Shown piece by piece: positions 47,283-63,499 of a stretch of 64,000 bases of DNA. Origin of the DNA: Minisyncoccota bacterium. Lineage in GTDB: Bacteria; Patescibacteriota; Minisyncoccia; UBA6257; GWB1-50-10. Where the stretch lies: assembly GCA_020059585.1 (NCBI GenBank), contig JAGVBU010000008.1:22163-86162 (forward strand), written 5' to 3'. The notes under the pieces are model-generated. The model was not told where the DNA came from, made no database searches, and worked only from the letters and a program-made list of their open reading frames with translations. Numbering within the stretch: the stretch's first letter is position 1; each line of letters begins with the position of its first letter. The translations under genes were made by a program, and so were the position numbers.

Positions 47283-47360
47283 TAGCCCGCGTATGTGTTC
47301 TTCTATCTTACGAATACCTTCACGCTACCATAATATCGGAAAATCCTCAATAATAAGGAA

Positions 47361-48140
47361 ATGGGAAGAAAACTTGGACAGCATTTTCTCAAAAACAACG
47401 CCATTCTCGATTCTGTCGCGTCGTCGATCGATATTTCCGGAAAATCGACAATTATCGAGATAGGGCCGGGACATGGGGAGCTGACCGAAAGAATAAAAAT
47501 CCGCCTTCTTAAGGAAGATCCGCAAAAGAAGATTAAGATCGTCGCGATAGAGAAGGATCCTTTTCTTGCCGCGGAGCTTCAAAAAAAGTTTGCAAATGAA
47601 AAACACGTCACCGTTATATGCGGCGACGCGCGAAGCGAATTGAAAAAAATTGCCGATCTAATTTCCACAGAGTACGTTGTTTTGGGAAACATACCGTATT
47701 ACATAACCGGATACATCTTCCGCATTATAGGATCACTCCGCAAAAAGCCGGCGCAGGTGCTCTTTGTGATACAAAAAGAGGTAGCTGAACGCATCGTCGC
47801 AAATCCGCCGAGAATGAATCTTCTCGCGGCGTGCGTTCAGGTGTGGGCATCTCCCGCAATAAAAAAGATAATATCCAAAAAAGAATTTTCACCTCCTCCA
47901 AAGGTGGATTCGGCATTTATCGAACTCTCCGCGAAAGAAATACACGTCCCCGATTCCTATTATCAGACCGCGAAAATCATATTCACTCACCCGAGGAAAA
48001 CACTTCTCAATAATCTTTCATTAAAAATATCCAAAGAAGAAACCGAGGCGTATATGAAAGAACTCGGCATCTCCCCGCGCGCGAGACCTCAGGACATCTC
48101 TATCGCGCAAATATTCCAACTTACAGAAAAAATAAAATAG
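47361..48140 (+). CDS. rsmA: 16S rRNA (adenine1518/1519-N6)-dimethyltransferase
   Basis: KsgA N-terminus GQHFLKN, SAM motif IEIGPGHGELT, NIPYYIT. Confidence 0.85.
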   Translation: MGRKLGQHFLKNNAILDSVASSIDISGKSTIIEIGPGHGELTERIKIRLLKEDPQKKIKIVAIEKDPFLAAELQKKFANEKHVTVICGDARSELKKIADLISTEYVVLGNIPYYITGYIFRIIGSLRKKPAQVLFVIQKEVAERIVANPPRMNLLAACVQVWASPAIKKIISKKEFSPPPKVDSAFIELSAKEIHVPDSYYQTAKIIFTHPRKTLLNNLSLKISKEETEAYMKELGISPRARPQDISIAQIFQLTEKIK

Positions 48141-48158
48141 AGTACAATAAAAACATCT

Positions 48159-48677
48159 ATGAAAACCTATCAAAAAATACTCATTGCGGCATTTCTCTCG
48201 CTTATATTTCTTATGCCGTATAAAACAGACGCAATAGGTATTTTCACGCCGTTTGGGGGAAAAATTTTGACGTGGAGCCCCGTCGCCCCCGGATGCGCTC
48301 CATTTACCACGGCGGTATGCGTTGCCACACTCGGTACGATCTGTCCCACCGTTGAGGAACTCATCATCGCGCCTCCGAAGGGGGGTACGTTCGGAATATT
48401 GCGCGTCGACGGGATGACAATACCCGGACTCACCACAATATACGAAAAATACCTGTATCAGACGCCAGCCATCACCGTTCTCGGGAAATCAATAAATATA
48501 TGCAATATGTGCGATAACCTCTCCGGTATACCAGGGATAGGATCGATCACTGATGTAGTGTGCGACATTCCCGCGGTAAGCGATATCGTGGACACGCTCT
48601 GTGACTTTGTGGGGAGCGCGTGTCCCGTCGGGAACCTCATTTATAAAATGGGAACAAGTGGGGTGCCTTCATTGTAG
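48159..48677 (+). CDS. Cys-rich secreted protein (hypothetical), first gene of the T4SS-like block
   Basis: Signal peptide (cleavage near TDA-IG), 10 Cys in 150 residues, no TM. Confidence 0.4.
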   Translation: MKTYQKILIAAFLSLIFLMPYKTDAIGIFTPFGGKILTWSPVAPGCAPFTTAVCVATLGTICPTVEELIIAPPKGGTFGILRVDGMTIPGLTTIYEKYLYQTPAITVLGKSINICNMCDNLSGIPGIGSITDVVCDIPAVSDIVDTLCDFVGSACPVGNLIYKMGTSGVPSL

Positions 48678-48792
48678 GGTTCTCCGTGCGTGCTGTGTTA
48701 CCCTGTAACGCGTTATGTTGTATAATAAAAAGAGTATCACGCAAGTAAAATAGCGGGAATTCTTGTGAGTGCCGCTTTTTATCTCAACACAC

Positions 48793-49581
48793 ATGACACT
48801 TTCATCAAAAAGCAAAAAACTCACCGCGGCCGTAATTGTGGGCGCGGGAATCATCGGAACATACCTCATACTCTCCTCCGAACGTGCTAATGGAAACGTC
48901 TTTTTTGACGTGGATTTCAAAAAAAACAGCGACGCGGCTCTCGGATTTCAAAAAGGAGATGTTGTTCCGAATAATCCGAATAACACATTTGATCCAAACA
49001 ACCTTACGGACGTATTTCTCAGTAAATACGCGGCCGAGATATTAAAGAAGAACCCCCAAGGACCCCTCGATCTAGAAGGTCAGAGAAAGATAACAATCCC
49101 ATCACAGGAATCGCTCGAAAAAATAATTCAAGAGGAGATGGAACAGGGAGTCGCGATACAAGAAGTCACCTCGCGGGAAATAAAACACACCACCGACGAT
49201 TCTCCGGCGGCAGCGCTTTCATACATACAAAGCATCATCTCAGCGAATGAGCGTATGTCAAAGAAAACAAACAACAACCTTGGGGAGGTGGCGTATTTAT
49301 GGCTTGAAAAAAACAATGCCGATCCCATCACAAAACAGATGGACGCGCTTTCGGTGCTCGTGTCTGATCTTCTCGCGGTGCCGGTACCTCCCTCATGGAA
49401 AGACGTTCATCTCTCCATGATCAACCTCCAGCAAAAAAAAATTACAGTGCTTCAGAGTATCTTTGATATTAACAGCGATCCCGTAAAAGCGCTTGCCGCG
49501 GCGCACATTATAGAAACACTCTCACTTGAAGAGCAGGATGTCGCGCGTATGATCCGGACAAAAGCACAAAAAATCCTCTAA
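48793..49581 (+). CDS. Membrane-anchored hypothetical protein (VirB8-like candidate by topology only)
   Basis: N-terminal TM helix (LTAAVIVGAGIIGTYLILS) followed by ~230-aa extracytoplasmic domain. Confidence 0.35.
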   Translation: MTLSSKSKKLTAAVIVGAGIIGTYLILSSERANGNVFFDVDFKKNSDAALGFQKGDVVPNNPNNTFDPNNLTDVFLSKYAAEILKKNPQGPLDLEGQRKITIPSQESLEKIIQEEMEQGVAIQEVTSREIKHTTDDSPAAALSYIQSIISANERMSKKTNNNLGEVAYLWLEKNNADPITKQMDALSVLVSDLLAVPVPPSWKDVHLSMINLQQKKITVLQSIFDINSDPVKALAAAHIIETLSLEEQDVARMIRTKAQKIL

Positions 49582-49584
49582 ACG

Positions 49585-51276
49585 ATGAAAAATCCGTATC
49601 TCAAAATATTTACCTCTTTCTTTATATCGGTGTTTCTCGCAACGAACGTCTTTTTACTTATCCCTCCAAAGCCGGTTCAGGCACAGGGACTTGTCGCTGA
49701 TCTTGCGGAAGCGTGCGTGGGAGGACTCGTAAAAACTCTTCTTGGAGATGAAATTGCGGGAGCTCTGGAAGACGCGGTAGATTGGGCAAAGGGAGCGCTG
49801 GGGCTCAGCGTGCTGGATAATAAGGTCCCCACAGACGATTCAAAAACACAGGGACAGATAAAGCTCTCAACTATTGAGGTGTGTCTCACCGCGGTGAAAG
49901 AAATTGCGATCCGTATCGCGCGGGCAATTTTGAAGAAGCAGCTTCTCGATCAGATTGTTGATCAGACTATCCAATGGATACAGGACGGCACTCAGCCGAA
50001 ATTCGTAGGTAACTTCGGGGAATTCTTCAACGATGCAGTTGATGCGGGAATAGGAGAAACAATACGAGAGATAGGACTCGGAGAATTTTGCGACGGACCC
50101 GTAAAGGCGAAAATACAGATAAACCTCACGAAGCCGGCGCGATTTTATGAACGCGCATCCTGTACTCTGAGCGATGTGGTGGGAAACATAGAGGCATTCA
50201 AGGAAAATTTCAAAAACGGATCATGGATAGGGATTCAGGAGGCGGTAAGTCCCCAAAACAACAGACACGGCATATATCTCCTCGCGATGGAAAAAATGCT
50301 TGAGGAGACCGAGAAAGAGGATAAGGCGGCGCAGGCCGAAATCGTAGGAAGCGGGGGATTCAACGCGCAAAAAACATGCGTGCTCTGGGTGCTTACCGAT
50401 ATCAATAAACGATATCTCGCTGACACAAGCGGAAGTCTTATATATGACTACACTGAGAAAAGCATCAATGATCCGCCGCCACCGCCCGCAAACGCGCCAG
50501 CAGGAAGTACGTTTATCTGCGATCCTATGGGAGAGGTTGTTGTCACGCCCGCAAAAACAATCGGTGATTCCGTATCGAAAGCGGTGACTTCTGATATCGA
50601 CTACATATTGAATGCCGAGGATCTCGAAACGTACGCGAGCGCGATTCTTGATGCCGCGATAAACCGTCTCACGAAAGATGCGGTAACAGGAATCAGAAAT
50701 CTCGGCACCACATCACAATCAGATCACCAACAAAACATAACTAATGCGTCTGGTGAATATAATAATGCGATGAGCGGGCAGAGTCTCGCGGCAGGAATTG
50801 AGGCGGGAGTGCGCGGACAAATTACAGCTCAAGCGAACGGGCTCTCGGGAGGACTCGATCAGGCATCCTCAACTCTCGACGCGATTGCGATCGCGAACGA
50901 AGCGCTTATAAAGGTTCTTGATAATTCAGGGACTCCGCGCGGACTCACTCAATGTATAGCAACCAACGCACAATTCGTGATAACCCCCTCTACATTCTCT
51001 CCGAATGCGGTGCTCTCCGACGCGCTTTCAAGGAAAAACACGTGGATTCCTCAGGAAATACAGAACCTTGCGCAGGCGCGGCAATCAACGGCTCAACTCA
51101 TATCAAATCTCGGCGGAAATTCAATGACGGTGAATATACTTTCCCAGATACTGCAGGGATTACAGGAAACGGTAACTGAGAAAAACGCGGAATATCAATC
51201 CATACTCTCAGAGATTACCGCTGACACGGGCACGGCCACCACAAACAGGGACGCGTGCGGAGGCGGAGGAAATTAA
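49585..51276 (+). CDS. Large secreted protein (hypothetical)
   Basis: Signal peptide (…KPVQA-QG), 563 aa, PPPPPANAPAG linker, C-terminal GGGGN. Confidence 0.4.
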   Translation: MKNPYLKIFTSFFISVFLATNVFLLIPPKPVQAQGLVADLAEACVGGLVKTLLGDEIAGALEDAVDWAKGALGLSVLDNKVPTDDSKTQGQIKLSTIEVCLTAVKEIAIRIARAILKKQLLDQIVDQTIQWIQDGTQPKFVGNFGEFFNDAVDAGIGETIREIGLGEFCDGPVKAKIQINLTKPARFYERASCTLSDVVGNIEAFKENFKNGSWIGIQEAVSPQNNRHGIYLLAMEKMLEETEKEDKAAQAEIVGSGGFNAQKTCVLWVLTDINKRYLADTSGSLIYDYTEKSINDPPPPPANAPAGSTFICDPMGEVVVTPAKTIGDSVSKAVTSDIDYILNAEDLETYASAILDAAINRLTKDAVTGIRNLGTTSQSDHQQNITNASGEYNNAMSGQSLAAGIEAGVRGQITAQANGLSGGLDQASSTLDAIAIANEALIKVLDNSGTPRGLTQCIATNAQFVITPSTFSPNAVLSDALSRKNTWIPQEIQNLAQARQSTAQLISNLGGNSMTVNILSQILQGLQETVTEKNAEYQSILSEITADTGTATTNRDACGGGGN

Positions 51277-51289
51277 TTTTCAGAATCTG

Positions 51290-53449
51290 ATGAAATCGCA
51301 TATACAAAAAATACTCGGATCGGCGCTTACGCTTTTCTTTGCGTTTCTTGCGATCCCTTTCCCCGCTGACGCGCTCTTTTTCCTCGGACCGCTCGCCGTC
51401 GCGGCAATCGCGTACGCGGTACTCTATATCCTCCAATACATTGGCGCGATGTTCTTCAGTCTCGCGGGATATCTCGTTGGATTTTTCCTCGATTTCAATT
51501 ACCAGATACTCTCGCCGAATAATATGGTGGTTACGATTGGATGGGAGATCACACGTGACATCGCAAACCTCGGGTTCGTGCTTGTAATCATAATTATTGC
51601 GCTCGCAACCATCATCCGTTATCAGGATTACGGCGCGAAAAAACTTCTTCCCCGTCTCATCGGAGCCGCGCTCCTCGTAAATTTCAGTCTCTCTCTTGCG
51701 GGAGTGTTTATCGGGTTCTCTCACGTGATCACGCGCTATTTCTTTAACGCGGTTGCGGAGAAGGATAATATTGTCGATCTCGTAAAGACACTTTCTGGCG
51801 CGTTTGATCCGCAGGCGCTTTTTACCGAACCATCGGAACCAGAGCCTGTTGATCCCGATGAAGAAGCGGGAGGGCTTTCGGGATTCGGCACCGCGGTGCT
51901 TATGAACATCACGGGATTATTCTTCGTGGTAATTTTCACATTCATCGCATCGTTCGTGCTTCTCGCGTTCGCCCTTATGCTTCTTATCCGCTACGTCGCG
52001 CTCTCATTTCTTATGATCCTCGCTCCAATCGCGTGGCTTTTCTGGGTGATTCCCTCACTTGAAAGCCAATTCTCTAAATGGTGGAGCAGGTTTCTTAAAT
52101 GGGTATTTTTCGCCCCCGCCGTTTCCTTCTTCTTTTATCTCGCGCTGGTGAGCATTGGAAGAATGAAACAGGGTACGGGCGCCGTCACTCCCACTCAATT
52201 TTTCAAAAACGGATTTATATCGGCGATGATGCAGCAGGGCGCGCGCATGGCGATTCTTATCGGACTCCTCATTGGGGGACTTATGGTTGCCGACAGTATG
52301 GGCACCACGGGCGCCAAGGGCGCGATGAACCTCCTGAACAAAGGTGTGGATAAGAGCAAGAAATGGCTTGGAGCAAAGGCAAAGGAGGGCGCGACACGCG
52401 CCGCAACCGCGCCTCTCAGGACCGATACGGGAAGGAGTTTTGTAAACAAGCTTCAGACCCTCGGCAAGGATAGTAAATGGGGTGGTGCAGCCGCACCGTT
52501 ACGAATGATGGGATCAAGCCTTGCTGGTGTTACCGCAAAAGCGGAACAACAATACCAAACAACGAAGGCGAAGTTTGAAAAAATGAGTACGGAAAAAATT
52601 GCGGCGGGACACGCAAACGCAAACGACGAGGAACGCGCAGCAGGCGTTGACGTAATCGCGGAGAGAGGAAAGAAAATCGGAGACGCGCTTATTGACGCAG
52701 AAAAAGAGATTGAACGGTCCGTGAGAGCACTCGAAAAAGCGAAAGAAAGCGGCGATCAAAACTCTATAGTTGCCGCGGAAGAGCGTCTCGATAAGGCAAA
52801 CGAGAAGAAAGGAGCGGTTAAGAAGGAACAATATCAATACGAGGAAGCGCTCAAGAATCTCCCCGCAAATACTCGTGATGGAATTGGAAATATAGGACAA
52901 TATGTCTCCGACAAACAAAATAAAGTCCCCACAAAACAATTTGATATTGCTAACATTACAACGAAAGAGGATGGTGTCCTCTTCCGAAGAACAAAGAGGG
53001 GAGCACGGTACATCGCAACACGAAAAGCCCCCACCGAAGGAGAATTAAACGATGCGCGACAAGCAATACCTTCCGCCCAAAATAAACTGAACGCCTCTGT
53101 TGCGAATGCCGCAACAGCACGGACAAATCTTGCTGGATTTAGAACCGCAAGAACAACCGCAGAAGCAGATAAGAGAAATGCCCAGATAGAGCATGATAGA
53201 TTTGCAAACCAAAAAACATTCAATCAAGCGGATGAAAACGCGAGACTAAATAACCTCGCGGCGGCAAAAAGAAGATTAGATAATGCAACGCAACAAACAA
53301 AGGATATTGAAGAGGAGATAAAAGATACCGAGCAAAAGATACGTGAAGAAACAAAGGCTCGTGATGATCTTGCAAAAGCCCAGCAAAAACTACAAAATCT
53401 TGAACGCCAGAATCGAGAAGGATGGAGAAGAAAAGAGCACAAGCCATAA
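51290..53449 (+). CDS. VirB6/TrbL-like polytopic membrane protein with C-terminal coiled-coil tail
   Basis: ~330-aa N-terminal domain with at least 6 TM helices, then ~390-aa Ala/Lys/Glu/Gln-rich predicted coiled coil. Confidence 0.5.
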   Translation: MKSHIQKILGSALTLFFAFLAIPFPADALFFLGPLAVAAIAYAVLYILQYIGAMFFSLAGYLVGFFLDFNYQILSPNNMVVTIGWEITRDIANLGFVLVIIIIALATIIRYQDYGAKKLLPRLIGAALLVNFSLSLAGVFIGFSHVITRYFFNAVAEKDNIVDLVKTLSGAFDPQALFTEPSEPEPVDPDEEAGGLSGFGTAVLMNITGLFFVVIFTFIASFVLLAFALMLLIRYVALSFLMILAPIAWLFWVIPSLESQFSKWWSRFLKWVFFAPAVSFFFYLALVSIGRMKQGTGAVTPTQFFKNGFISAMMQQGARMAILIGLLIGGLMVADSMGTTGAKGAMNLLNKGVDKSKKWLGAKAKEGATRAATAPLRTDTGRSFVNKLQTLGKDSKWGGAAAPLRMMGSSLAGVTAKAEQQYQTTKAKFEKMSTEKIAAGHANANDEERAAGVDVIAERGKKIGDALIDAEKEIERSVRALEKAKESGDQNSIVAAEERLDKANEKKGAVKKEQYQYEEALKNLPANTRDGIGNIGQYVSDKQNKVPTKQFDIANITTKEDGVLFRRTKRGARYIATRKAPTEGELNDARQAIPSAQNKLNASVANAATARTNLAGFRTARTTAEADKRNAQIEHDRFANQKTFNQADENARLNNLAAAKRRLDNATQQTKDIEEEIKDTEQKIREETKARDDLAKAQQKLQNLERQNREGWRRKEHKP

Positions 53450-53458
53450 CACGCAACT

Positions 53459-55132
53459 ATGGATCAAAAAGACATATTAAACGCGTCACCGGAAAATCTT
53501 TTAACCTCTTTTCCTGTATGGGAAGAAAGCGTGTGGACCGCGCTTCAAAAAAAAGATTATGCGGAAGCGGCGGATAAACTTCAGGACACTCTAGAATATT
53601 TTACCGACGAGGGTCTCTCCCAAATACTATGGAAATCTCTTTTGGAGGGTATTCCTGCAGTTCGTGGCGCCCTTTCTTCTGATGAGTGGAATAGCGAAGT
53701 CCTTCCCTTTCTCGCACTTGCATTCATTAATTTTGCTGATGGACGCGCAATCGCCGATACATATCAAAGAACATCCCTTGAAATAATAAAAAAATTTCAC
53801 CCTCTTGTTGTAGATTCGATTCCCGGAGAAACTCCTGAAGAAAAAGTCGCGCTTCTTAAAACCTCCGCGTCATCAACGTACATCTATCTCACCGCAAGTC
53901 CCGCGCAGATTTTCGGACTCGGACTCTTTCCTATTCCCCAAAAACTCCCCTCGAATGAAAAAAAGAAGCCCGAGTATCAACTTGGATTTCTCTCGGAGAT
54001 ATTACGATATGGAATCTTCTCGTTCGACACCGCCCAAGATCTTTTTCTTATTGCTCAAAATAGAAAATTAGACGAAAAAAAGATGAGCGCGCTCGCGTAT
54101 GCGACGGGATCCGTACTCTTGGGAATTATAGCCCTCGATGATTTTTCCACCGCGCTGAAAGAAATAATTGATACACCTCCCGAAGAATGCGACTTCATCG
54201 CGAAAGAAATACGGGAAAAGATATTGGAGAAACACCGAAGGGAGATAAAGGAATTATTTGAAGGAACAAAAGAGGCCACAATCCCATCCGGAGAAACCGT
54301 CTCTCTGGAAGTGTTCGGATTTGACGGAGAAAAAGCAAAAGAAGCCGCTCCCGTGAAAATCACGCCGGAAAAAACGAGCGCGCCAGAAACGGCTCCTCTT
54401 GTGATACACAGAGAAAAACCGTCTCCTTTCGGATTTCAGAACGCGGGATCAAAACAATCATCCGGAAAAAGCTTTTCGCTTCCTTTTGGTTTTTTCAAAT
54501 CCAAATCGGATAATGCTTCTCCGAATCCGGTGCGCGCCACGATAGAGCTTCCAAAAATCCTCAAGCCGGAGGAAAAGAAAACTATTCATTATAGTGAACT
54601 CAGAACTCCCATTACTCCGTTTCAAAAAGAAAAGGCATTTATCAGTACCGACACGGAAAAGAGCGGGAAGGGTGATGATCAGAAAAAAACACCCGCGGAT
54701 ATCATACAGAAAAAAGAGGATAACGCGCTTAATCTTTCTTTAGTAGACACGAAAAAAGATCTTCAAAAAGAGAGGGCTCGCGTGAAAGAGGTGTTTTCCT
54801 CTATTTCTGCCGGTTCCGCGTCCTCGCAGAAAAACATTATAAAAGAAGATACCCGTCCGACGGCTATTTTGAAAAAAGAATATACTCTTATAAACAAATC
54901 TCCGGAAAAAATACCCCCATCTTCTAATATATCCTCCGATACCCCCCTTAAGAAACAGGTTCAGGCAGATTTGAAAAACGTCAGCGCAAAAACCCCGCAA
55001 GAAAAACCCCAACTCACCGGAAAGGGATTCTTTTGGGGGTTTCCAAAAAAGAAACCCGCCGAAGCACCCGCCGTTAAAAGACCCGAAACAGGTCCGGAAA
55101 TCGAGGGAAATAAACTTAATCTCAAAAAATAA
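53459..55132 (+). CDS. Hypothetical protein; structured N-terminal half, disordered K/E/P-rich C-terminal half
   Basis: 557 aa, no signal peptide or TM; low-complexity C-terminus. Confidence 0.35.
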   Translation: MDQKDILNASPENLLTSFPVWEESVWTALQKKDYAEAADKLQDTLEYFTDEGLSQILWKSLLEGIPAVRGALSSDEWNSEVLPFLALAFINFADGRAIADTYQRTSLEIIKKFHPLVVDSIPGETPEEKVALLKTSASSTYIYLTASPAQIFGLGLFPIPQKLPSNEKKKPEYQLGFLSEILRYGIFSFDTAQDLFLIAQNRKLDEKKMSALAYATGSVLLGIIALDDFSTALKEIIDTPPEECDFIAKEIREKILEKHRREIKELFEGTKEATIPSGETVSLEVFGFDGEKAKEAAPVKITPEKTSAPETAPLVIHREKPSPFGFQNAGSKQSSGKSFSLPFGFFKSKSDNASPNPVRATIELPKILKPEEKKTIHYSELRTPITPFQKEKAFISTDTEKSGKGDDQKKTPADIIQKKEDNALNLSLVDTKKDLQKERARVKEVFSSISAGSASSQKNIIKEDTRPTAILKKEYTLINKSPEKIPPSSNISSDTPLKKQVQADLKNVSAKTPQEKPQLTGKGFFWGFPKKKPAEAPAVKRPETGPEIEGNKLNLKK

Positions 55133-55203
55133 GGGGAAATTGTGAGAATCAGCGAACGGCGATATACTAAAGATGATATATTGCCGTTTTTTTTCATACC
55201 ATT

Positions 55204-55704
55204 ATGGCAACCTTTCAAGTTCCCCAATTTATAGATCAGAAACCGAAAATCGTAGGTCCCCTTACGCTCCAGCAATTTGCGTTTGTCGGAAGCGCGGCGC
55301 TTCTCAGTTTTATCTTCTATTACACATTTGATACGTTTCTCTGGATATTTTTTTCCATTGTTCTTGGATCAATCGCCCTCCTCCTCGCGTTCGGAAAAGT
55401 GAACGGGCAGGAGGCAACCATCGTCCTGAAATCCCTTTTTAAATTTCTTCTTGAGCCCAGGCTTTTTCTTTGGGAAAAAAACTTCTCCGAGAAAAAAAAG
55501 GAAGAGTCAGCGGAAAGTATCGCATCGGTCAGAAACACAATGAGCATCCAGCAGAAACTCAAATCGATAACACTGAACATAACGACGGGGAAGGCGTTTT
55601 CACCAAAAATATCCCAAGAAACGCAGAAAAAGGAGGGCTTCCAAGTGGCTACATTTTCCACCGGAGAGAAAAAATTTGTAAAAAAAGTCGACTACAGCGA
55701 ATAG
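55204..55704 (+). CDS. PrgI/VirB3-like small membrane protein
   Basis: N-terminus MATFQVPQFIDQKPKIVGPLTLQQFAFVGSAALLSF then a second TM, matching the PrgI-family signature and position immediately upstream of VirB4. Confidence 0.5.
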   Translation: MATFQVPQFIDQKPKIVGPLTLQQFAFVGSAALLSFIFYYTFDTFLWIFFSIVLGSIALLLAFGKVNGQEATIVLKSLFKFLLEPRLFLWEKNFSEKKKEESAESIASVRNTMSIQQKLKSITLNITTGKAFSPKISQETQKKEGFQVATFSTGEKKFVKKVDYSE

Positions 55705-55746
55705 GAATTCTTCGCATAACAAAAAGGAATCGATTACAATATCAAT

Positions 55747-56400
55747 ATGCCACCAAAGAGCCAACCAGACGCAAAGCCATCACAAGAATTTGTTGCGGTG
55801 AAGAAAATACACGATGGCGTTCTCTACCTGAAAAAGGGTGGAATTTGCCGCGTACTTATTGTAAGCGGGATTAATTTTGATCTGAAATCAGAAGCGGAAC
55901 AAAATATGATACTTTCAAGTTTTCAAAATTTCCTCAACACCCTTGACTTCTCCGTCCAATTTTTCATCCACTCAAGAAAAGTAAATATTGAAGAATACAT
56001 GGAGAAAATGAAAGAACGGAAAGAGCAGGAAACAAATGAGCTCCTAAAAATACAAATCGAAGAATACATGAATTTTATACAATCCTTCGTTGATCAAAAT
56101 GATATTGTGACAAAATCCTTTTTCATTGTGGTGCCCTATGAATCAGTACACGTCGTCAATCAAGCACGGGGAGTATTGTCCCTCTTCAAAAAATCAGCCC
56201 CCCAATCCACGGAAACTATCGCCCAAGAGGATATACAACAATTAAACCATCGGGTGGATCAGGTAACCCTAGGACTCGAGCAAATAGGTCTCCGCGTAGC
56301 CCCTCTCGAAGACGATGAGCTTCTCGAGTTGTTCTACAACCTTTACAATCCTCGCCTCGTCGAAAAAAAAGGACTTGAGTTGTCACATAAAGAAAAATAA
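55747..56400 (+). CDS. VirB4/TraE-family N-terminal domain, separate ORF
   Basis: 217 aa resembling the N-terminal domain of Gram-positive VirB4 (VAVKKIHDGVLYLKKGGICRVLIVSGINFDL...); TAA stop 4 nt before the ATG of the ATPase ORF. Confidence 0.55.
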   Translation: MPPKSQPDAKPSQEFVAVKKIHDGVLYLKKGGICRVLIVSGINFDLKSEAEQNMILSSFQNFLNTLDFSVQFFIHSRKVNIEEYMEKMKERKEQETNELLKIQIEEYMNFIQSFVDQNDIVTKSFFIVVPYESVHVVNQARGVLSLFKKSAPQSTETIAQEDIQQLNHRVDQVTLGLEQIGLRVAPLEDDELLELFYNLYNPRLVEKKGLELSHKEK

Positions 56401-56404
56401 CACC

Positions 56405-58147
56405 ATGCCCACACCATATACCCCCTCGTCAGAAGATCTTCCAAATATTATCGCTCCCGCGGGAATAGAGGTAAATTCCAATTATCTTAAAATAGGGGAT
56501 TATTACGCTAAAACATTTTTCATATTCACATATCCGCGATACATCTCAAGCGGATGGTTCTCTCCCATACTTAATCTTTCCGAAATGATGGATATCTCCA
56601 TTTTTATGCATCCAATGGATACCGCGCTGACACTCCGCAATCTCACAAAGAAAGTTGCTCAAATAGAGGCGGAAATGAATGAAAAACAGGACAAAGGAAT
56701 TGTCCGCGATCCAGTGCTTCAGACCGCGCATGAAGACGTCGAGTCACTTCGCGACGCGATTCAACAGGCACGGGAGAAGTTATTTCAGGTTGGAGTATAT
56801 ATCACTATATACGGAGCCGATATAAAGAAGTTGGAACAACTCCAGAATAAAGTTGAATCAATGCTTGAAAGTAAGCTTGTTTATATAAAACCAGCGCTTT
56901 TCAGGCAGATTGAGGGGATGAACACCACATTTCCTTTCGCGAAAGATGAGCTTTCCGTTCTCACCCCTCTCAATTCAGGTCCCGCATCGTCTCTTTTTCC
57001 CTTTATATCTCCCGATCTTTCTTCCGAAAAAGGCGTTCTTTTCGGGGTAAATATGCACAACAACAGCCTTATCATCTTTGATCGTTTTTCGCTTGAAAAC
57101 GCGAACTCAGTCATCTTTGCAAAATCAGGATCCGGAAAATCATATTCCACAAAATTACAAATACTCAGATCCCTTATGATGGGAACAAACGTTGTGGTGT
57201 TGGATCCTGAAAATGAATACAAAAACCTTGCGGATGCGATTGGGGGAAGTTATTTCAAAATATCACTCACATCGGAAAGTCATGTGAATCCATTCGATAT
57301 TCCTGTTATTCCAGAGGGTGAGGATCCCGCTGACGTATTTAAATCGCACGTATTAAATCTTGCTGGACTTCTTAAATTAATGTTCGGAGAAATCACTGCG
57401 GAAGAAGAATCTATTATCGATCGTGTGCTTATAGAAACCTACGCGTCACGTGATATTACCGCCGAAAATTTCGGAGCAACGAGGGAATTAAATCCTCCAC
57501 TCCTCGAAGACCTTCAGGTGGTACTCGAAAACACCGAGGGAGGATCAGCGCTCGCGAAACGCCTTGAAAAATATACCCGCGGATCATATGCGGGATTCAC
57601 AAACGTCCCCACGAACGTTGATATTAAAAACAGACTTATCGTGTTCTCGATCCGCGATCTCGAAGAGGAGCTCCGCCCCATCGCGATGTATATTATCTTG
57701 AACTTCGTGTGGAATCTCATTCGTTCAGAATTAAAACAGCGTATTCTCGTCATTGATGAGGCGTGGATAATGATGAAAAACAAAGACAGCGCGTCATTTC
57801 TCTTTGGACTCGTAAAAAGAGCACGGAAATATTATCTCGGCGTGACGTGTATTACGCAGGACGTGGAGGATTTCCTCAAATCAGAATACGGGAAGCCTAT
57901 TATAACAAATTCCTCAATGCAGATTCTCCTCAAACAATCGCCGACAAGTATTGATTCTGTAGGAAAAACCTTCAATCTCACCGAAGGGGAGAAGGCTTTT
58001 CTCCTTGAGTGCAGCGTTGGAGAAGGATTGTTTTTTGCGGGAATGAAACATGTTGCGATAAAAATAATTCCCTCATACACCGAAGACCAGATTATCACCA
58101 CCAATCCGGAACAGATGCTTGCGATAAAAGGCCTCACTCAGCGATAG
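56405..58147 (+). CDS. VirB4/TraE-family type IV secretion ATPase, C-terminal ATPase portion
   Basis: YLKIGDYYAKTFFIFTYP signature, Walker A FAKSGSGKSYST, Walker B RILVIDEAWIMM, C-terminal CagE/TrbE region. Confidence 0.75.
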   Translation: MPTPYTPSSEDLPNIIAPAGIEVNSNYLKIGDYYAKTFFIFTYPRYISSGWFSPILNLSEMMDISIFMHPMDTALTLRNLTKKVAQIEAEMNEKQDKGIVRDPVLQTAHEDVESLRDAIQQAREKLFQVGVYITIYGADIKKLEQLQNKVESMLESKLVYIKPALFRQIEGMNTTFPFAKDELSVLTPLNSGPASSLFPFISPDLSSEKGVLFGVNMHNNSLIIFDRFSLENANSVIFAKSGSGKSYSTKLQILRSLMMGTNVVVLDPENEYKNLADAIGGSYFKISLTSESHVNPFDIPVIPEGEDPADVFKSHVLNLAGLLKLMFGEITAEEESIIDRVLIETYASRDITAENFGATRELNPPLLEDLQVVLENTEGGSALAKRLEKYTRGSYAGFTNVPTNVDIKNRLIVFSIRDLEEELRPIAMYIILNFVWNLIRSELKQRILVIDEAWIMMKNKDSASFLFGLVKRARKYYLGVTCITQDVEDFLKSEYGKPIITNSSMQILLKQSPTSIDSVGKTFNLTEGEKAFLLECSVGEGLFFAGMKHVAIKIIPSYTEDQIITTNPEQMLAIKGLTQR

Positions 58148-58153
58148 CACCAC

Positions 58154-58540
58154 ATGGAAGACAAGGGAAACAATCGCGTTGAAACACCTCGAAACGAGGA
58201 ACGGAATGATGTCACTGAAGCGGAAGCTATTGTGTGGCTCTCATTCCTTATCGGATTCGACGGAATATGCATTTTACTCGATCTCACGGGAGTCGGGATG
58301 GGTATTGCCCCATTCCTTCAGGGATTCGGCACGTTTTCTTCGGGTATGTGGTTCGAAAAAACAAAAGGAGACAAGAACGCGATGAAAATGCAGAGACAGC
58401 TTATAAAATACATCTCAAATGTCGCGCCATTCCTTCCTACACTCTCGATTGCGTTTGCGATTGAAGCGTATATGCACAACCATCCGGAAAAATTCGAGAA
58501 GATAGAGAAGGCCTTAAACACGAAAACTCCCTCGAAATAG
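58154..58540 (+). CDS. Small membrane protein (hypothetical)
   Basis: 128 aa with two or three hydrophobic helices. Confidence 0.3.
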   Translation: MEDKGNNRVETPRNEERNDVTEAEAIVWLSFLIGFDGICILLDLTGVGMGIAPFLQGFGTFSSGMWFEKTKGDKNAMKMQRQLIKYISNVAPFLPTLSIAFAIEAYMHNHPEKFEKIEKALNTKTPSK

Positions 58541-58555
58541 TGTATAATAAATGGA

Positions 58556-59245
58556 ATGAGGACACGGTTTCTTGTGATTTTTCTTGGAGTAATCGCGCTC
58601 TGCCTCGCGTCTTTTAACGTAACACAAAGTCAGACCGCGGCGCCGCAGGAAGAGGTGATATTATCGTGGCAGGCGCTTAATTTTTTCCCCGCGAATTTCG
58701 AGGGGAAGGCTCTTGCGTCTCCTTTTAGCCCTATACTTGCAAGCGTTGAGGTTATTGAAAACGGAAAATTTACCGACCTTTCTCAGTCATCAATATCATG
58801 GAAGATTGATAATAAATTTCTTCAAAGCGGTGTTGGACTCAAGGAAGTTTTATTCAGAATACAGAAAAATAAGGGTGATTTTCATATCATACAGGTTTCT
58901 ATAGAAAAAAACGGGAAGAAAAGTCAGGGAAGCGTTCTTATACCGATCGCCCCGCAGACAATTGTGGTGGAACTTCCATATTCCGGGAACACGATATTCT
59001 CCAATGTAGAGAACACCATAAAAGCGATTCCTTATTTCTTCAATATAAAAACCTTAAACGAGCTTTCTTTTTTCTGGCAGATAAACGAAAGGAAGGAGGG
59101 CGGAAAAGATAATAATGTGCTTATCCTGAAAACGAGCGCGCCTCAGACAAAAAGCCAAAGTCTCATTGAAATCACTTCATCGGCCCAAAACAACACAAAT
59201 CCCTTGGAGTTCGCGAAAACGAAGATTTGGTTGAATGTAAAATAG
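58556..59245 (+). CDS. Secreted protein (hypothetical)
   Basis: Signal peptide (CLASFNVTQS-QTA), 229 aa, beta-rich composition. Confidence 0.35.
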   Translation: MRTRFLVIFLGVIALCLASFNVTQSQTAAPQEEVILSWQALNFFPANFEGKALASPFSPILASVEVIENGKFTDLSQSSISWKIDNKFLQSGVGLKEVLFRIQKNKGDFHIIQVSIEKNGKKSQGSVLIPIAPQTIVVELPYSGNTIFSNVENTIKAIPYFFNIKTLNELSFFWQINERKEGGKDNNVLILKTSAPQTKSQSLIEITSSAQNNTNPLEFAKTKIWLNVK

Positions 59246-59260
59246 ATATAAACACCACTT

Positions 59261-60490
59261 ATGAAAACGTGGCATAAAATACTCATCATAGTAATCCTTC
59301 TCGGTATCGGAATTTTCGCGCTATTTTATTTCTTTAATAAGATAGCCGTCCCCGTCCCCATAGAGGAATCGCAGGGTGTTCTTTTTCCTGGATTTGAAAA
59401 AAACGGAGGCACCCAAGGGTTGGGGGATGTAGGGAGTCCATCCACGGAAAAAACTGCCGTACTCTCGAAAATATCAGACGTGCCTGTATTTGATTTCTGG
59501 ATATCGAAAGACACGGGAGAGTTGTATTACATCACCAACAAAGGAAGGATTTTTTCTGGGAAGGACGGATCTGATATCGATATGAATACTCAGGAACTCA
59601 GCTCCCTGAATATGATTATCCCAAGCGAAACAGGAAAGAAAATCATCGCGTCTTTCGGGGATCCGCAGAAACCCCGCTGGGGAGTGTTTGATGTTGTTGA
59701 TGGGGTGTGGAAGCCTCTTTCTGATAAAATAACTTCCGCCATGTGGGGGAAGGATGAGGATACGCTTATAGGAACCATTCAAAATGAAGATGGACATTCG
59801 ATCGCGTCTTTTGATATTTCAAAAAATCCCATAAAAAGCTCCGTCATCCTTAAGGATTTTCGGATAAAAGATGTGTCATTTTCATGGAAGAATCCCGACT
59901 CAATAATGATTCTTGAACGCTCAAGCGCGACAATAAAAGGGCGTCTTTGGGAGTTTAATACAAAAAATCTTCTCGTAAAACAGGTAGATCCCGGAACAAG
60001 CGGGCTCTCATTTCTTTGGAGCGCATCCAGAGAGTACGCGCTTAGATTTTCAAATCCAAACAATCTCCTTGTGCTTAATGGAAATCTCGAACCGGTAAAT
60101 CCTCTGACTATTACCTCCATCCCTCAAAAATGCGGATTCAGTGAGGACGCGCTCTATTGTTTTATCCCGCAGGATACCGACTCTTTTTTGGAATTCTCGC
60201 TTCCTGATGATTATTTCCAGAATAAATTTTATTCCACGGATACATTGATCTCTATCAATCTCGAAACCGATAAGATGGAAACGCTTCTACAAAGCGGTGT
60301 GGGAAATTTTTCTCCGATTGACGGACGGCATCCGCGGGTACACGAAGGAGATGTATTTTTCGTGAATAAATATGACTGGTTCGTGTATCGCGTCCATATT
60401 TCAGAAGAGGGAGAGGGACTAGAAAAATCTAATGAAGTAAACCAAAACGAAGAAAACCAAATTTACAATGAACCTTCCCCGTTTAATTAA
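59261..60490 (+). CDS. Membrane-anchored extracytoplasmic protein (hypothetical; possible beta-propeller)
   Basis: N-terminal TM anchor (ILIIVILLGIGIFALFYFF), 409 aa, repeated beta-strand-like segments. Confidence 0.35.
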   Translation: MKTWHKILIIVILLGIGIFALFYFFNKIAVPVPIEESQGVLFPGFEKNGGTQGLGDVGSPSTEKTAVLSKISDVPVFDFWISKDTGELYYITNKGRIFSGKDGSDIDMNTQELSSLNMIIPSETGKKIIASFGDPQKPRWGVFDVVDGVWKPLSDKITSAMWGKDEDTLIGTIQNEDGHSIASFDISKNPIKSSVILKDFRIKDVSFSWKNPDSIMILERSSATIKGRLWEFNTKNLLVKQVDPGTSGLSFLWSASREYALRFSNPNNLLVLNGNLEPVNPLTITSIPQKCGFSEDALYCFIPQDTDSFLEFSLPDDYFQNKFYSTDTLISINLETDKMETLLQSGVGNFSPIDGRHPRVHEGDVFFVNKYDWFVYRVHISEEGEGLEKSNEVNQNEENQIYNEPSPFN

Positions 60491-61919
60491 ATTTATTGTA
60501 CTTTTCGCGTGTGTGGCGGTGTTTTTTACGCCTGCGGTGTTTGCGCAAACCCCCATCACGATTGATACTACGTTTCTCACTCCCGATACAAACGCTTCGA
60601 GCGTCCCACAATTCATATCGAAATTTTATGAGCTCGGACTCGGTATTGCTGGTATTATCGCGGTCGGGATGATTGTTGTGGGCGCAATATTTTACACAAT
60701 ATCAGGCGCAAGCCCTCAGAAAAAAGGGGAGGCAAAAGATATTATTTTTTCGGCCATATGGGGGGTAGTGCTTCTTTTCGGCTCGTATGTAATATTGAAA
60801 TCAATAAACCCTCAACTTATAGAGCTCCGCGATCCAGGAAGCGGTCTTGGGGGAGAATTGCCGAGTCCTATGGATACAGGAAACTGTTCTTCAACAACTC
60901 CTATTGTTGATATAAATGGAAATCCAAATCCAAACGGGGCGACCTTAAATCCGTGCGCTGAAGGAGAACCACCAATAAATCCGGAGACAGGATACTGCCA
61001 ATGTTACAAAAGAGAAATAGCACCCATAGCGTGTCCCATCGAACTTGAGCCTGTCTCATATAGAAACAACGATGGAAGTCTCCCGACATATCGATGGACG
61101 ATGTCAGGAGAAAAAGTAAATTCAACAAATACGCACCCCCCAGGAAGAACAAGTGCTGGTGACAATATATGCGCGAGGAAGGTTCTTATTCCTGAGCACA
61201 CCGACTTCTACACTGTTGATTGCGATCCGTGTGAAGAGGGATGGCCGAGTAGTGGGTTCTTTGGTTATGCGGACGATGAACACAACTTCGAAAAGAACAC
61301 CACAGGATGGGTGTGGCCGTACTATCCTAAACTAGCGGGAGGTTCCGCTGAAACAGCACCACAGTACGCGCTTTGCGTGATGTATGCCTACTATGATCCT
61401 GAAGACGAGGAGATTGTCCGCGCGGATCTCGATGGATTGAAACCTTGTGTTGAATTTTCCTCATCCACACCAAGAGCAACAGGGAATTACGAGCAAGCTG
61501 GGTGGGAATCAAGAAATAACGAGATTCTCCAAAGATTACAAAACGCCGGTATATCTGTCACAAGTAGTGGAAATTGCGGAGATCCGAACAATCCTAGTTG
61601 CACCAATGTTGGGGGGCTCCCTGATTATGCCGTCGATCAGATTATCTATATAAAACAGAATTGCAACTGTGAGGTGAGGGTTACAGGGGGAGCTGAGACA
61701 GGACACCAATCACACGGATTAAACCGTCCTGTGTTTGATCTTGCATCAAATCAGACGCTTGCCCAATATCTCTTCAATAATCGAACAGGAAATGGGCTTG
61801 GTTTCGTCCAACAAATATGCACTACAAACGCATACAGCCAGTATCGATTTAATTGTGGAAGTTACACCGAAGCACAAGAACACCTCCATGTGAAAACTGG
61901 AATAAATTGGAGTCCTTAG
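60468..61919 (+). CDS. VirB2/TrbC-like pilin module fused to a ~370-aa Cys-rich extracellular domain
   Basis: N-terminal 115 aa repeat the pilin-paralog topology and loop motif (TISGASPQKKGEAKD); C-terminal domain has 16 Cys and a possible HxnD...ExxH metal-site pattern. Confidence 0.5.
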   Translation: MNLPRLIKFIVLFACVAVFFTPAVFAQTPITIDTTFLTPDTNASSVPQFISKFYELGLGIAGIIAVGMIVVGAIFYTISGASPQKKGEAKDIIFSAIWGVVLLFGSYVILKSINPQLIELRDPGSGLGGELPSPMDTGNCSSTTPIVDINGNPNPNGATLNPCAEGEPPINPETGYCQCYKREIAPIACPIELEPVSYRNNDGSLPTYRWTMSGEKVNSTNTHPPGRTSAGDNICARKVLIPEHTDFYTVDCDPCEEGWPSSGFFGYADDEHNFEKNTTGWVWPYYPKLAGGSAETAPQYALCVMYAYYDPEDEEIVRADLDGLKPCVEFSSSTPRATGNYEQAGWESRNNEILQRLQNAGISVTSSGNCGDPNNPSCTNVGGLPDYAVDQIIYIKQNCNCEVRVTGGAETGHQSHGLNRPVFDLASNQTLAQYLFNNRTGNGLGFVQQICTTNAYSQYRFNCGSYTEAQEHLHVKTGINWSP

Positions 61920-61922
61920 TTA

Positions 61923-61950
61923 CAAAAAACCGCCCTTCGGCGGTTTTTTA
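61923..61950. terminator. Bidirectional rho-independent terminator between the cluster and jag
   Basis: A-tract, stem CCGCC/GGCGG with CTTC loop, then TTTTTT; overlaps the jag stop codon. Confidence 0.55.
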
Positions 61951-62376
61951 TTCGATCCTCCGTATCACCACTCTCCTTTCCTTTCCCTCTCCCGTGCTTT
62001 CCGTACGAAGCTCAGGATGGGTTGCTATTTCCATATGGACAAGTCTTCGCTCATATCCATTCATAGAAGGAAGTTCTACGTCCTGCTTTGTAATTATTGC
62101 TTTTTTCGCGGCCGCGCGCGCGAGTTCTGATATTAGGCGCTCCCGCTCTTTCCGATAATAATTCACGTCAATCACAAACGGATTCTGTTTTTCCTTTCTG
62201 AAGATAAGCCCAAGAAGGTGATCGAGCGCAGGAAGAAATGTGGTCACATTTTCAGAGACAACCCTATCTTCGATCATAAAGGATATTTTTCTATGTTCCT
62301 CATCGATGTGTGTTTCCACACCTTGGAACCCTCCAAGTTCCACTATTTTTTTAACTTTTTCGAATAATTCTTGCAT
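61948..62376 (-). CDS. jag: RNA-binding protein Jag/KhpB (KH + R3H)
   Basis: C-terminal R3H signature (LPSMNGYERRLVHMEIATHPELRTESTGEG); conserved position next to yidC. Confidence 0.75.
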   Translation of the reverse strand: MQELFEKVKKIVELGGFQGVETHIDEEHRKISFMIEDRVVSENVTTFLPALDHLLGLIFRKEKQNPFVIDVNYYRKERERLISELARAAAKKAIITKQDVELPSMNGYERRLVHMEIATHPELRTESTGEGKERRVVIRRIE

Positions 62377-62386
62377 AGTGACAATG

Positions 62387-63070
62387 TTATTTTTTCTCCG
62401 TTGCCGACTTCTCGTTTATCTTCTTATTGATGTATACCTGCTGGCCTATAGAGAACAGCGTAGAGACTATCCAATATACACCAAGCGCGGATGGAAGGGA
62501 AAAGAGTATTACAAGCGTGATTGCGGGCCCTATTATCACCATCATCTTTCCTATGGACGCCGCGGGATTGTTATTCCCCGATCCCGCAGTCGCAAGCGCC
62601 ATTTTCCCCTGTATATATTGGAGTCCCGCGGCAATAACCGCGAGGACAACACTCTTCTCACTAAGATTAATTAAGCCGAAAAGAGCGACGCTGTCAAACG
62701 CGACGTTCGAGAGTTCGCGAGAAAATATCTGGAAAAGCGCGAGAAAAATAGGAAGTTGCACAAGAAGGAGAAGGAATCCCGAAAATGGATTCAGGTTGTT
62801 TTCTTTATAAAGCGCCATTAAAGCCTGCGCCTGCGCCTCCTTGTTTCCCTTGAATTTCTCCTGTATCTCTTTCATCTTCGGTTGTATCTTCTGCATTAGC
62901 GTCTGATCTTTCGCGCTTTTATAGAAAATAGGGAAAAGGATTATCCTTGTGGCAATCGTAAGTATCGCGATGGCGATTCCCAAATCGTGGAATGCCATGT
63001 TTTCATATATAAAAACAAGCGCCCCAAGTATCGGTGCGTATATATACACGTGAAATATATTAGATATCAT
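62387..63070 (-). CDS. yidC: Membrane protein insertase YidC, short form
   Basis: 227 aa with 5 TM helices and conserved YidC/Oxa1 core; rnpA-yidC-jag synteny. Confidence 0.8.
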   Translation of the reverse strand: MISNIFHVYIYAPILGALVFIYENMAFHDLGIAIAILTIATRIILFPIFYKSAKDQTLMQKIQPKMKEIQEKFKGNKEAQAQALMALYKENNLNPFSGFLLLLVQLPIFLALFQIFSRELSNVAFDSVALFGLINLSEKSVVLAVIAAGLQYIQGKMALATAGSGNNNPAASIGKMMVIIGPAITLVILFSLPSALGVYWIVSTLFSIGQQVYINKKINEKSATEKK

Positions 63071-63074
63071 GGTA

Positions 63075-63350
63075 TCAGAGTCTAGGAAAGTCTTTCTTCA
63101 ACTCCTCGAATGATACCATGCGAGCTGCGGGTTTTACAACAACACAGTACGATCCTTGTATTTTTCCGATTGATCGAAAAATCGCGCGCACCCTTCTTTT
63201 CAGGAGATTGCGCGTTACCGCTTCTTTTGCGACATTTTTTGATACAGAAACAAAAAACGGCTTCTTTCCGCCGCGTACCCTATGTATAGCAAAAAACCTC
63301 GTGGTGATTACACCGAAAGCTTCTTTCTTCCCTTTGCTCGGCGGCGTTGC
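63075..63350 (-). CDS. rnpA: RNase P protein component; 5' end unresolved
   Basis: Conserved RnpA core GKKEAFGV...[38 protein letters not shown] aligns with the RNR-box region of bacterial RnpA; no canonical start codon between the conserved N-terminus and the rpmH stop. Confidence 0.6.
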
Positions 63351-63442
63351 AGCACATTCTTTCCCCCTGGAGTTCTCTTTCGCACGAGAAATCCGTGTGT
63401 TTTCTTTCTTTTTCTCTTGTTTGGTTGGTATGTTCTTGACAT
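63308..63442 (-). CDS. rpmH: 50S ribosomal protein L34
   Basis: Hand translation of the minus strand gives [44 protein letters not shown], a complete L34; it lies in a different frame inside the 151-aa ORF-track entry 63075..63530. Confidence 0.85.
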
Positions 63443-63448
63443 AATCCA

Positions 63449-63457: not shown

Positions 63458-63499
63458 ATTCATCAACAATTAAATCACATATCTCTTTCCAAATCAATA

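Follow-up and report, generated by a model that had tools for sequence, protein, structure and literature searches.

The cluster that encodes a type IV secretion system (T4SS) in Southlakia epibionticum ML1 (SEML1_0006-0019) and its pilins were found by transposon sequencing to be essential for epibiotic growth (Wang et al., 2023; PMC10633639). That cluster contains VirB4, PrgI, a VirB6-like protein, an NTF2-like protein, and six PF18895 pilins, and a relaxase and a coupling protein were noted as missing (PMC10633639). A survey of 3,035 Patescibacteria genomes subsequently detected VirB4 in 2,417, in most cases with no relaxase, and placed the Patescibacteria VirB4 proteins in a monophyletic clade nested in MPF_FATA (Quinonero-Coronel et al., 2025; PMC12102498). 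The genes recorded near virB4 included those for TrsD, PrgI, VirB6, and VirB2-like pilins; 441 pilin arrays were counted, and relaxases occurred in 103 genomes only (PMC12102498). In Paceibacteria and Microgenomatia, the commonest neighbors of virB4 were dnaA, dnaN, rnpA, ksgA, and rpmH (PMC12102498). No T4SS component was more abundant in Patescibacteria than TrsD, which is remotely homologous to the N-terminus of VirB4, and in S. epibionticum the TrsD homolog has been listed as essential (PMC12102498). A nomenclature review of 2025 classes these systems as a new superfamily branch (PMC12857230). Here, a block of 12 open reading frames (ORFs) was analyzed at positions 48159-61919 of a stretch of 64,000 nucleotides (nt) from a Paceibacteria bacterium (contig JAGVBU010000008.1; the whole stretch is referred to as the window). 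The block is very probably a vertically inherited, origin-proximal T4SS of MPF_FATA conjugation descent that has been repurposed.

The composition, the position, and the lack of conjugation genes were published between 2023 and 2025, and the finding is already known because Wang et al. (2023) and Quinonero-Coronel et al. (2025) describe every main point. A preliminary description of this DNA had called the composition essentially uncharacterized, which does not hold, since the former study showed essentiality and the latter catalogued the same arrangement. Few machines are known to be indispensable to the epibiotic life of a very large share of bacterial diversity, and the T4SS of the ultrasmall, host-dependent Patescibacteria, or the candidate phyla radiation (CPR), is one of them. 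The window shows the published arrangement in a clear Paceibacteria case and provides no new kind of system. What is added here is a corrected gene map, comparative proof that the separation of TrsD and VirB4 is ancestral, and two testable leads, namely a possibly zinc-hydrolase-like pilin fusion and a possibly TraC-like helical bundle.

The block was tight and co-directional, and all of its ORFs were intact. It contained the following genes, given with window coordinates, strand, and product length in amino acids (aa):

48159-48677, plus strand: g01, 172 aa, secreted protein with eight cysteines and a hydrophobic N-terminus, a poorly conserved accessory.
48769-49581, plus strand: g02, 270 aa, bitopic membrane protein with a single transmembrane (TM) segment at residues 18-36.
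49585-51276, plus strand: g03, 563 aa, secreted or anchored protein, candidate VirB5-like tip or adhesin subunit.
51290-53449, plus strand: g04, 719 aa, "extended" VirB6/TrbL-like polytopic membrane protein.
53459-55132, plus strand: g05, 557 aa, protein without a TM segment, consisting of an N-terminal globular part and then a low-complexity half.
55204-55704, plus strand: g06, 166 aa, PrgI/VirB3-like protein with two TM segments.
55747-56400, plus strand: g07, 217 aa, TrsD-like, a stand-alone protein homologous to the first ~150-200 residues of VirB4.
56405-58147, plus strand: g08, 580 aa, VirB4 ATPase, monoderm MPF_FATA type; the ORF finder gives 56315 as its start (610 aa).
58154-58540, plus strand: g09, 128 aa, small membrane protein with a hydrophobic segment.
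58556-59245, plus strand: g10, 229 aa, secreted or anchored protein with an N-terminal hydrophobic segment.
59261-60490, plus strand: g11, 409 aa, N-terminally anchored extracytoplasmic protein with a TM segment at residues 7-25.
60468-61919, plus strand: g12, 483 aa, VirB2-like T4SS pilin followed by a Cys-rich middle region and a C-terminal zinc-motif domain.

From the upstream gene rsmA onward, the intergenic gaps were 18, 91, 3, 13, 9, 71, 42, 4, 6, 15, 15, and -23 nt. The preliminary description had counted 14 ORFs, two more than the block holds, and had placed the 557-aa protein after VirB4, although g05 falls between the VirB6-like g04 and the PrgI-like g06.

The 610-aa VirB4 ORF matched Pfam P-loop_TraG (1e-28, 100.6 bits) and AAA_10, and g08 scored above the cut-off of the NCBIfam conju_CD1110 VirB4 model (374.4 vs. 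325 bits) over model positions 188-734 of 752. Walker A (AKSGSGKS, 57119-57142) and Walker B (LVIDEAW, 57746-57766) motifs were both intact in g08, so that the VirB4 ATPase with these motifs, as initially described, was recovered. The PDB matches of g08 were solely VirB4 proteins (4ag5, a Firmicute VirB4, 2.3e-44; TrwK, 2.5e-5). FtsK and HerA were absent among these matches, and the grouping with FtsK/HerA that had been considered at the outset was not seen. A Pfam match to the HerA-related DUF87 reached 35.6 bits, far below the score for P-loop_TraG. The NCBIfam families nearest to g08 were the VirB4 proteins of Clostridioides CD1110 and of Mycoplasma integrative conjugative elements (ICEs). 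The tblastn matches from most relatives started at residues 26-44 of the listed ORF, and an ATG (M31) was present at 56405, four bases past the g07 stop codon. The true VirB4 start is most likely this M31, as predicted from the sequence, instead of 56315.

The TrsD-like g07 aligned with positions 16-200 of 201 of the NCBIfam TrsD/TraD model NF041427 (1.7e-11, below the cut-off), with positions 4-147 of the CD1110 VirB4 model, and with positions 38-174 of Pfam TraC_F_IV. For comparison, a scan with one genome per species yielded 80 related loci with a VirB4 identity of 52-94%, of which 74 held both the TrsD-like and the VirB4 parts. In all 74, the two ORFs were unfused, lying in different frames in 56 and in the same frame with an intervening stop codon in 18, and the gap between them was 1-12 nt in most of these loci and 4 nt in the window. 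The division of VirB4 between two ORFs had been noticed before, and the two ORFs were confirmed, but they do not represent a broken gene. Because the ORFs were separate in every one of the 74 loci and fused in none, the TrsD/VirB4 split is ancestral and functional and involves no frameshift, as far as comparison of sequences can tell. A frameshifted virB4 in a decaying cluster, and hence a non-functional system, is a reading that could start from the fact that the VirB4 N-terminal region and the ATPase occupy two ORFs in different frames. It is scarcely credible, as the identical two-gene arrangement recurs in all of these loci, mostly with tight gaps, and corresponds to TrsD plus TrsE in pGO1-type systems; furthermore, TrsD is the prevalent and, in S. 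epibionticum, essential component mentioned above (PMC12102498), and 12 of 12 ORFs are intact. A pseudogene or frameshift was thus ruled out by the comparative data.

The membrane platform was represented by g06 and g04. The g06 protein passed the Pfam PrgI cut-off (PF12666, E 1e-8, 36.1 vs. 27 bits), in agreement with the two-TM PrgI/VirB3-like protein first reported, and a gene of this type was located immediately 5' of the TrsD-VirB4 pair in 67 of the 80 loci. By analogy, g06 may serve as the membrane anchor for VirB4. Hydropathy and charge indicated that g04 is polytopic, with a TM region at residues ~1-345 and a highly charged tail of ~375 aa that is probably a coiled coil; the VirB6-like character and the probable coiled coil of the preliminary description thus stood, and the tail length given there (~390 aa) was revised. 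The window protein alone had no Pfam match, and its VirB6 membership rests on the family profile. A profile of 33 g04-orthologous N-terminal regions matched TrwI, the VirB6 of R388 (7o3v_F), with an E value of 1.2e-4, which was the sole match below E 0.1, and eight of the 33 orthologs individually matched Pfam TrbL (PF04610; best 2.6e-8). By this profile-based sequence evidence, g04 is a VirB6/TrbL-like protein, and it fits the "extended VirB6" as the term is used in the nomenclature review (PMC12857230).

The pilins were encoded both inside the block and ~10 kb upstream, where four divergent VirB2-type paralogs formed an array (37464-39072, plus strand), each matching PF18895 with E values of 8e-12 to 1e-13:

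37464-37952, plus strand: first array pilin.
~37973-38320, plus strand: second array pilin.
~38365-38733, plus strand: third array pilin.
38752-39072, plus strand: fourth array pilin.

The four pilins of the array and the pilin domain of g12 were 18-48% identical in pairwise comparisons. The array is a "VirB2 array" in the sense of the literature. The four pilin genes had been recognized previously; type IV pili were considered for them and ruled out, because all four match the T4SS pilin family. The array was directly followed by a tRNA-Leu(tag) gene (39162-39244) and then by a gene for a XerC/D-type tyrosine recombinase (39266-40156, minus strand), which could be a housekeeping Xer or a hint of a variable or recombining array locus.

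The last gene, g12, had been described as a pilin fused to a Cys-rich domain, and this was borne out. The protein contained a signal peptide, two TM or hydrophobic helices, a pilin domain (60600-60806; T4SS_pilin PF18895, E 1.2e-8), and a Cys-rich middle region (60840-61487). In addition, the pilin domain weakly matched NF045849, an NCBIfam family of pilin-like conjugal transfer proteins from Mycoplasma ICEs (3.4e-4, below the cut-off); some monoderm MPF_FATA systems may thus have VirB2-like pilins, a point that matters for the origin of the CPR pilins. The C-terminal domain (residues 345-483, window 61500-61916) carried the residues of a LAS-type zinc motif (H413, H416, D424, H472, and H474). 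H416, D424, H472, and H474 were invariant in 11 sequences of the domain, and H413, H416, D424, and H472 were at least 90% conserved across 142 domain sequences; the domain family contains H-x(6-7)-D ... H-x-H, which is the zinc-ligand signature of LAS zinc hydrolases. Profile matches of the domain were sub-threshold and exclusively to LAS-fold families. Hedgehog N-domain chains were matched below threshold (E 0.36-1.9), and the best-scoring of the printed ones aligned on the zinc site, while homologs of the domain gave sub-threshold matches to HH_signal (9.4e-5), Peptidase_M15_3 (0.049), and also M15_4. Tentatively, these sequence features suggest a zinc-hydrolase-like domain, an assignment that structure-based analysis did not confirm.

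An exhaustive HMMER search with this domain returned 1502 cluster representatives. Among the top 134, which were scanned with Pfam, 117 also contained the T4SS pilin and 13 contained TrbC/VirB2; other domains were SLT transglycosylase (three) and the 3D domain (one). Judged by these domain combinations, the fusion of a pilin to a g12-type domain is common in the CPR and has a cell-wall-lytic context; a pilin fusion with an H..D..HxH domain goes unmentioned in the survey of Patescibacteria T4SSs (PMC12102498). It is possible, although on balance unlikely, that the pilus itself carries the wall-breaching enzyme, with a VirB2-like pilin and a LAS-type zinc peptidase-like domain joined covalently in one protein. 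If so, the pilus-borne enzyme and a VirB5-like tip protein (g03) would make up a device that cuts peptidoglycan, either of its own wall or of the host's, and opens a conduit, and the enzyme would account for most VirB2-bearing CPR genomes being without a recognizable VirB1.

The remaining genes of the block encoded mostly secreted or membrane proteins. The g03 protein had a conserved Cys/Trp-rich core at residues ~100-370 and a C-terminal three-helix bundle at residues 399-559 (window 50779-51261); its AlphaFold2 model was confident solely for this bundle and a small beta region. The modeled bundle tentatively resembles VirB5/TraC, which would make g03 a candidate tip protein. No sequence support was found for this likeness, and helical bundles match promiscuously; no VirB5-like protein was described in the CPR clade in PMC12102498. 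Pfam and PDB profile searches were empty for g02, which had orthologs in five close loci and a bitopic topology as expected of VirB8, so that it is a candidate only. No Pfam or NCBIfam match was obtained for g01, which had an ortholog in just one of the 80 loci, or for g09, which had orthologs in eight close loci. The g10 protein had orthologs in 22 loci and neither Pfam nor PDB matches. Orthologs of g11 were found in 16 loci, and its matches to WD40, DPPIV_N, and beta-propeller families were all sub-threshold and amounted to faint hints. Both Pfam and PDB searches were also empty for g05. In its low-complexity half, the motifs APLILHxEK, KxFSxPFxFxKSK, KRVVHYSELRTPxSPF, and C-terminal IEGNxxDL[KR] were kept in 11 orthologs; they have the look of docking motifs within a disordered protein. 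More generally, PDB sequence-profile searches with g02, g03, g05, g10, and g11 gave nothing meaningful, a Pfam scan of 64 orthologs of g01, g02, g05, g09, g10, and g11 gave stray sub-threshold matches alone, and NCBIfam returned no matches for g01 to g06.

The block was flanked by housekeeping genes on both sides, and a cell wall hydrolase gene was located next to rsmA:

46299-47282, minus strand: LysM-Peptidase_M23 hydrolase (Pfam M23 1.1e-24, LysM 1.2e-14).
47361-48140, plus strand: rsmA/ksgA (Pfam RrnaAD 7.3e-43), 18 nt from g01, a flank kept in 34 loci.
61948-62376, minus strand: jag, with an R3H domain, convergent to the block.
62387-63070, minus strand: yidC (60KD_IMP).
From 63075 (listed 63075-63530, 151 aa), minus strand: rnpA (Ribonuclease_P).
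63308-63442, minus strand: rpmH, the L34 ORF.
63590-64000, plus strand: N-terminus of dnaA, matching DnaA 8btg (1.3e-11).

The placement between rsmA and the jag-yidC-rnpA-rpmH-dnaA genes, as originally reported, was confirmed, and the arrangement recurs in Paceibacteria. The 80 closest VirB4 relatives were nearly all from Patescibacteria or unclassified metagenome-assembled genomes (MAGs); one locus, titled Patiriisocius sp., is probably a mis-binned contig. These relatives, and the MPF_FATA families that g08 matched best, are compatible with a place of g08 in the Patescibacteria VirB4 clade. Relatives with lineage names were mainly Paceibacteria/Parcubacteria (Paceibacter, Jorgensen-, Giovannoni-, Yonath-, Nomura-, and Campbellbacteria). 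A saccharibacterial origin was ruled out, since the organism groups with these genomes. Orthologous clusters in the same order were present in dozens of the 80 loci, and the recurrent order in Paceibacteria MAGs was rsmA, g03, VirB6-like gene, PrgI, TrsD, VirB4, pilin, and jag/yidC. In contrast to this shared order, g05, g09, g02, and g01 were restricted to close relatives. The conservation of the cluster, as read from these gene orders, is far beyond chance.

Genes for DNA transfer were sought across the same 64 kb. Among the window ORFs of 150 aa or longer, none matched a VirD4 or type IV coupling protein (T4CP), relaxase, or VirB11 family, in line with what had been reported, and the full set of mating-pair formation genes plus relaxase that had been weighed beforehand was likewise not present in the window. 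Nor did any of these ORFs match a TraG/VirD4/TcpA coupling protein; the sole FtsK-like protein, at 15507, has alpha and gamma domains, which agrees with the gamma domain noted earlier. The components of the block descend from conjugative MPF_FATA systems, most Patescibacteria genomes carry VirD4-like genes, relaxases occur in 103 of 3,035 genomes (PMC12102498), and 8 kb upstream there are genes for a tRNA and a tyrosine recombinase. On these grounds, the block could be taken for an ICE or an ICE remnant still capable of moving DNA, with its relaxase and coupling protein encoded beyond the window. This is highly improbable: housekeeping genes flank both sides, and the same flanks occur across Paceibacteria genera and families; the GC content of the cluster (45.1%) does not differ from that of the whole window (44.7%); relaxase, T4CP, and VirB11 were not found within 48 kb upstream; and PNPase, comM, rsmA, and other genes separate the recombinase from the cluster. 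Moreover, the nearest VirB4 relative is in the same class for 99.3% of proteins, and inter-class transfer is rare (PMC12102498). The ICE was rejected as a candidate, as the flanks rsmA and jag-yidC are conserved and the GC content is typical, which are not the boundaries of a mobile element. Because the gene order and housekeeping flanks recur and the composition matches the window, the sequence comparisons indicate that the cluster is vertically inherited chromosomal equipment and not an ICE.

As for its function, the block is very likely a contact-dependent host-interaction machine and not a conjugation apparatus. The preliminary description had likewise proposed a reduced chromosomal VirB-like surface machine beside the origin that serves host interaction, and the domain matches, synteny, and housekeeping flanks support this view. 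DNA conjugation is not predicted because a relaxase and a coupling protein do not accompany the cluster, and from its gene content a host-contact function is inferred. The roles of VirB3, VirB4, VirB6, and VirB2 are established in the T4SSs that have been studied. In the proposed model, the VirB6-like g04 and the PrgI/VirB3-like g06 would form a membrane platform, on which VirB4 would dock as two pieces, the TrsD-like g07 and the ATPase g08. Powered by VirB4, VirB2-like pilins would then be pulled out of the membrane and polymerized into a pilus or tube; these pilins would be g12, the fusion pilin, and the four array paralogs (37.4-39.1 kb). The products of g01 to g03 and g09 to g11 would build the wall-spanning and distal parts, with g03 possibly as a VirB5-like tip protein, while the wall would be opened by the LysM-M23 peptidase and/or the zinc-hydrolase-like domain of g12. 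The result would be an exchange, dependent on contact, between the bacterium and the host cell that it relies on.

Several points weigh against this interpretation. Seven of the 12 proteins (g01, g02, g03, g05, g09, g10, and g11) have no family detectable in Pfam, NCBIfam, or PDB profile searches, a VirB8-like protein was not identified in the cluster, and the VirB5-like (g03) and hydrolase (g12) assignments are both tentative. The absence of a T4CP and a relaxase holds for these 64 kb, and VirD4-like genes occur elsewhere in most Patescibacteria genomes (PMC12102498). The cluster of the present organism is known from its genes alone, and homology is what suggests that its pilins would form a pilus.

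The direction of transport is where another explanation enters. In a cultured member of the phylum, tubes that are possibly T4SS pili penetrate the host envelope, and host RNA is taken up (bioRxiv 10.64898/2026.06.21.733656). The pilus or tube might likewise pierce the host envelope so that host RNA, DNA, or other macromolecules are drawn in, rather than effectors exported, similar to the archaeal Ced or Helicobacter ComB T4SS-like systems for DNA import. The organism belongs to a type without nucleotide biosynthesis, genes for PNPase and an NYN-domain RNase lie 5-8 kb upstream with comM adjacent, and g08 weakly matched CedB (3.9e-12) and CedD (3.2e-6) in NCBIfam. However, these two matches scored 45.6 and 26.1 bits, far under the cut-offs of 700 and 600, respectively, and the best matches were to conjugative VirB4 proteins. 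Deletion of comEC in S. epibionticum ended competence but not viability, so the essentiality of its T4SS does not run via ComEC DNA uptake (PMC12857230); the preprint itself calls the uptake mechanism unresolved, and the sequence carries no sign of transport direction. An importer is therefore regarded as rather improbable, with some weight left to it, and the contact-dependent host-interaction machine is retained as the preferred reading.

Other genes around the block were as follows. The comM gene and a DksA/TraR zinc-finger gene were present upstream of the cluster together with the LysM-M23 gene, and all three had been pointed out previously. The LysM-M23 gene occupied the same position beside rsmA in nine loci, and its product is a candidate for a VirB1-type role; M23 and LysM domains occur in VirB1-like proteins of Patescibacteria (PMC12102498). 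The two RNase genes 5-8 kb upstream of the T4SS cluster were:

40593-41150: NYN-domain RNase.
41137-43188: PNPase.

PNPase and VirB4 have been tied to feeding on host RNA in this phylum in the 2026 preprint. A 367-aa ORF without a Pfam family (43285-44388) was located between the PNPase gene and the DksA/TraR-like zinc-finger gene. The listed 151-aa rnpA ORF overlapped rpmH on the same strand in another frame; its Ribonuclease_P match was confined to residues 79-149, and hence the real rnpA start is internal. Between 20417 and 23494 on the minus strand, genes for a GCS2-like ligase, an amidoligase/GCS2-like protein, and a class-I glutamine amidotransferase were adjacent, which constitutes a small peptide-ligase-type module in a reduced genome. 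The remaining window genes were housekeeping genes, including gyrA, PNPase, recA, ftsK, ftsH, nusA, an aminoacyl-tRNA synthetase, and others. Terminator-like hairpins in window 46000-64000 numbered 44, compared with 20.7 +/- 5.1 expected from shuffles, and many of these were inside genes on the antisense strand.

Compared with known systems, the block was closest to the T4SS of the Patescibacteria clade (PMC12102498), with which it shared an MPF_FATA-derived VirB4, a separate TrsD directly upstream, PrgI/VirB3, VirB6, and PF18895 pilins, which are located next to virB4 as well as in a divergent array. It also shared the lack of a relaxase or T4CP nearby and the location beside dnaA, rnpA, rpmH, and ksgA. 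Nothing essential differed; the g12 fusion and the VirB5-like g03 are additions, and both are tentative. The cluster SEML1_0006-0019 of S. epibionticum ML1 is similarly near the origin and contains VirB4 next to a small hypothetical gene, along with PrgI, a large VirB6-like protein, and PF18895 pilins, again without a recognizable relaxase or coupling protein, and its essentiality is a functional precedent. On the other hand, S. epibionticum belongs to another class (Saccharimonadia), and its six pilins are inside the cluster, whereas the present locus has a single, fused pilin inside and the other four at a distance of 10 kb. An NTF2-like (VirB8-like) protein is encoded by SEML1_0012 and none was recognized in the window cluster, and peptidase and lysozyme genes lie downstream of virB4 in the SEML1 cluster.

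Among monoderm MPF_FATA systems, the references were TrsC/TrsD/TrsE of pGO1, PrgH/PrgI/PrgJ of pCF10, the C. difficile conjugative transposon CD1110, and the Mycoplasma ICE. The block resembled these in its VirB4 above the CD1110 cut-off, the pGO1-type separation of TrsD, the PrgI-family VirB3, and the absence of an outer-membrane core (VirB7, VirB9, and VirB10). Unlike MPF_FATA conjugation systems, it lacked a relaxase, a T4CP, an oriT context, and a PrgB-type adhesin, and it was chromosomal, vertically inherited, origin-proximal, and equipped with VirB2-like pilins, which Gram-positive conjugation systems generally do not have. Diderm VirB/D4 systems (A. tumefaciens VirB, R388 Trw, and pKM101 Tra) differ in that the window cluster is without VirB7, VirB9, VirB10, VirB11, and VirD4 and its envelope is monoderm. 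Nevertheless, the VirB2, VirB3, VirB4, and VirB6 modules are homologous in both, and a possible VirB5/TraC-like helical-bundle protein and a predicted pilus-based action are further features that the present locus may have in common with them.

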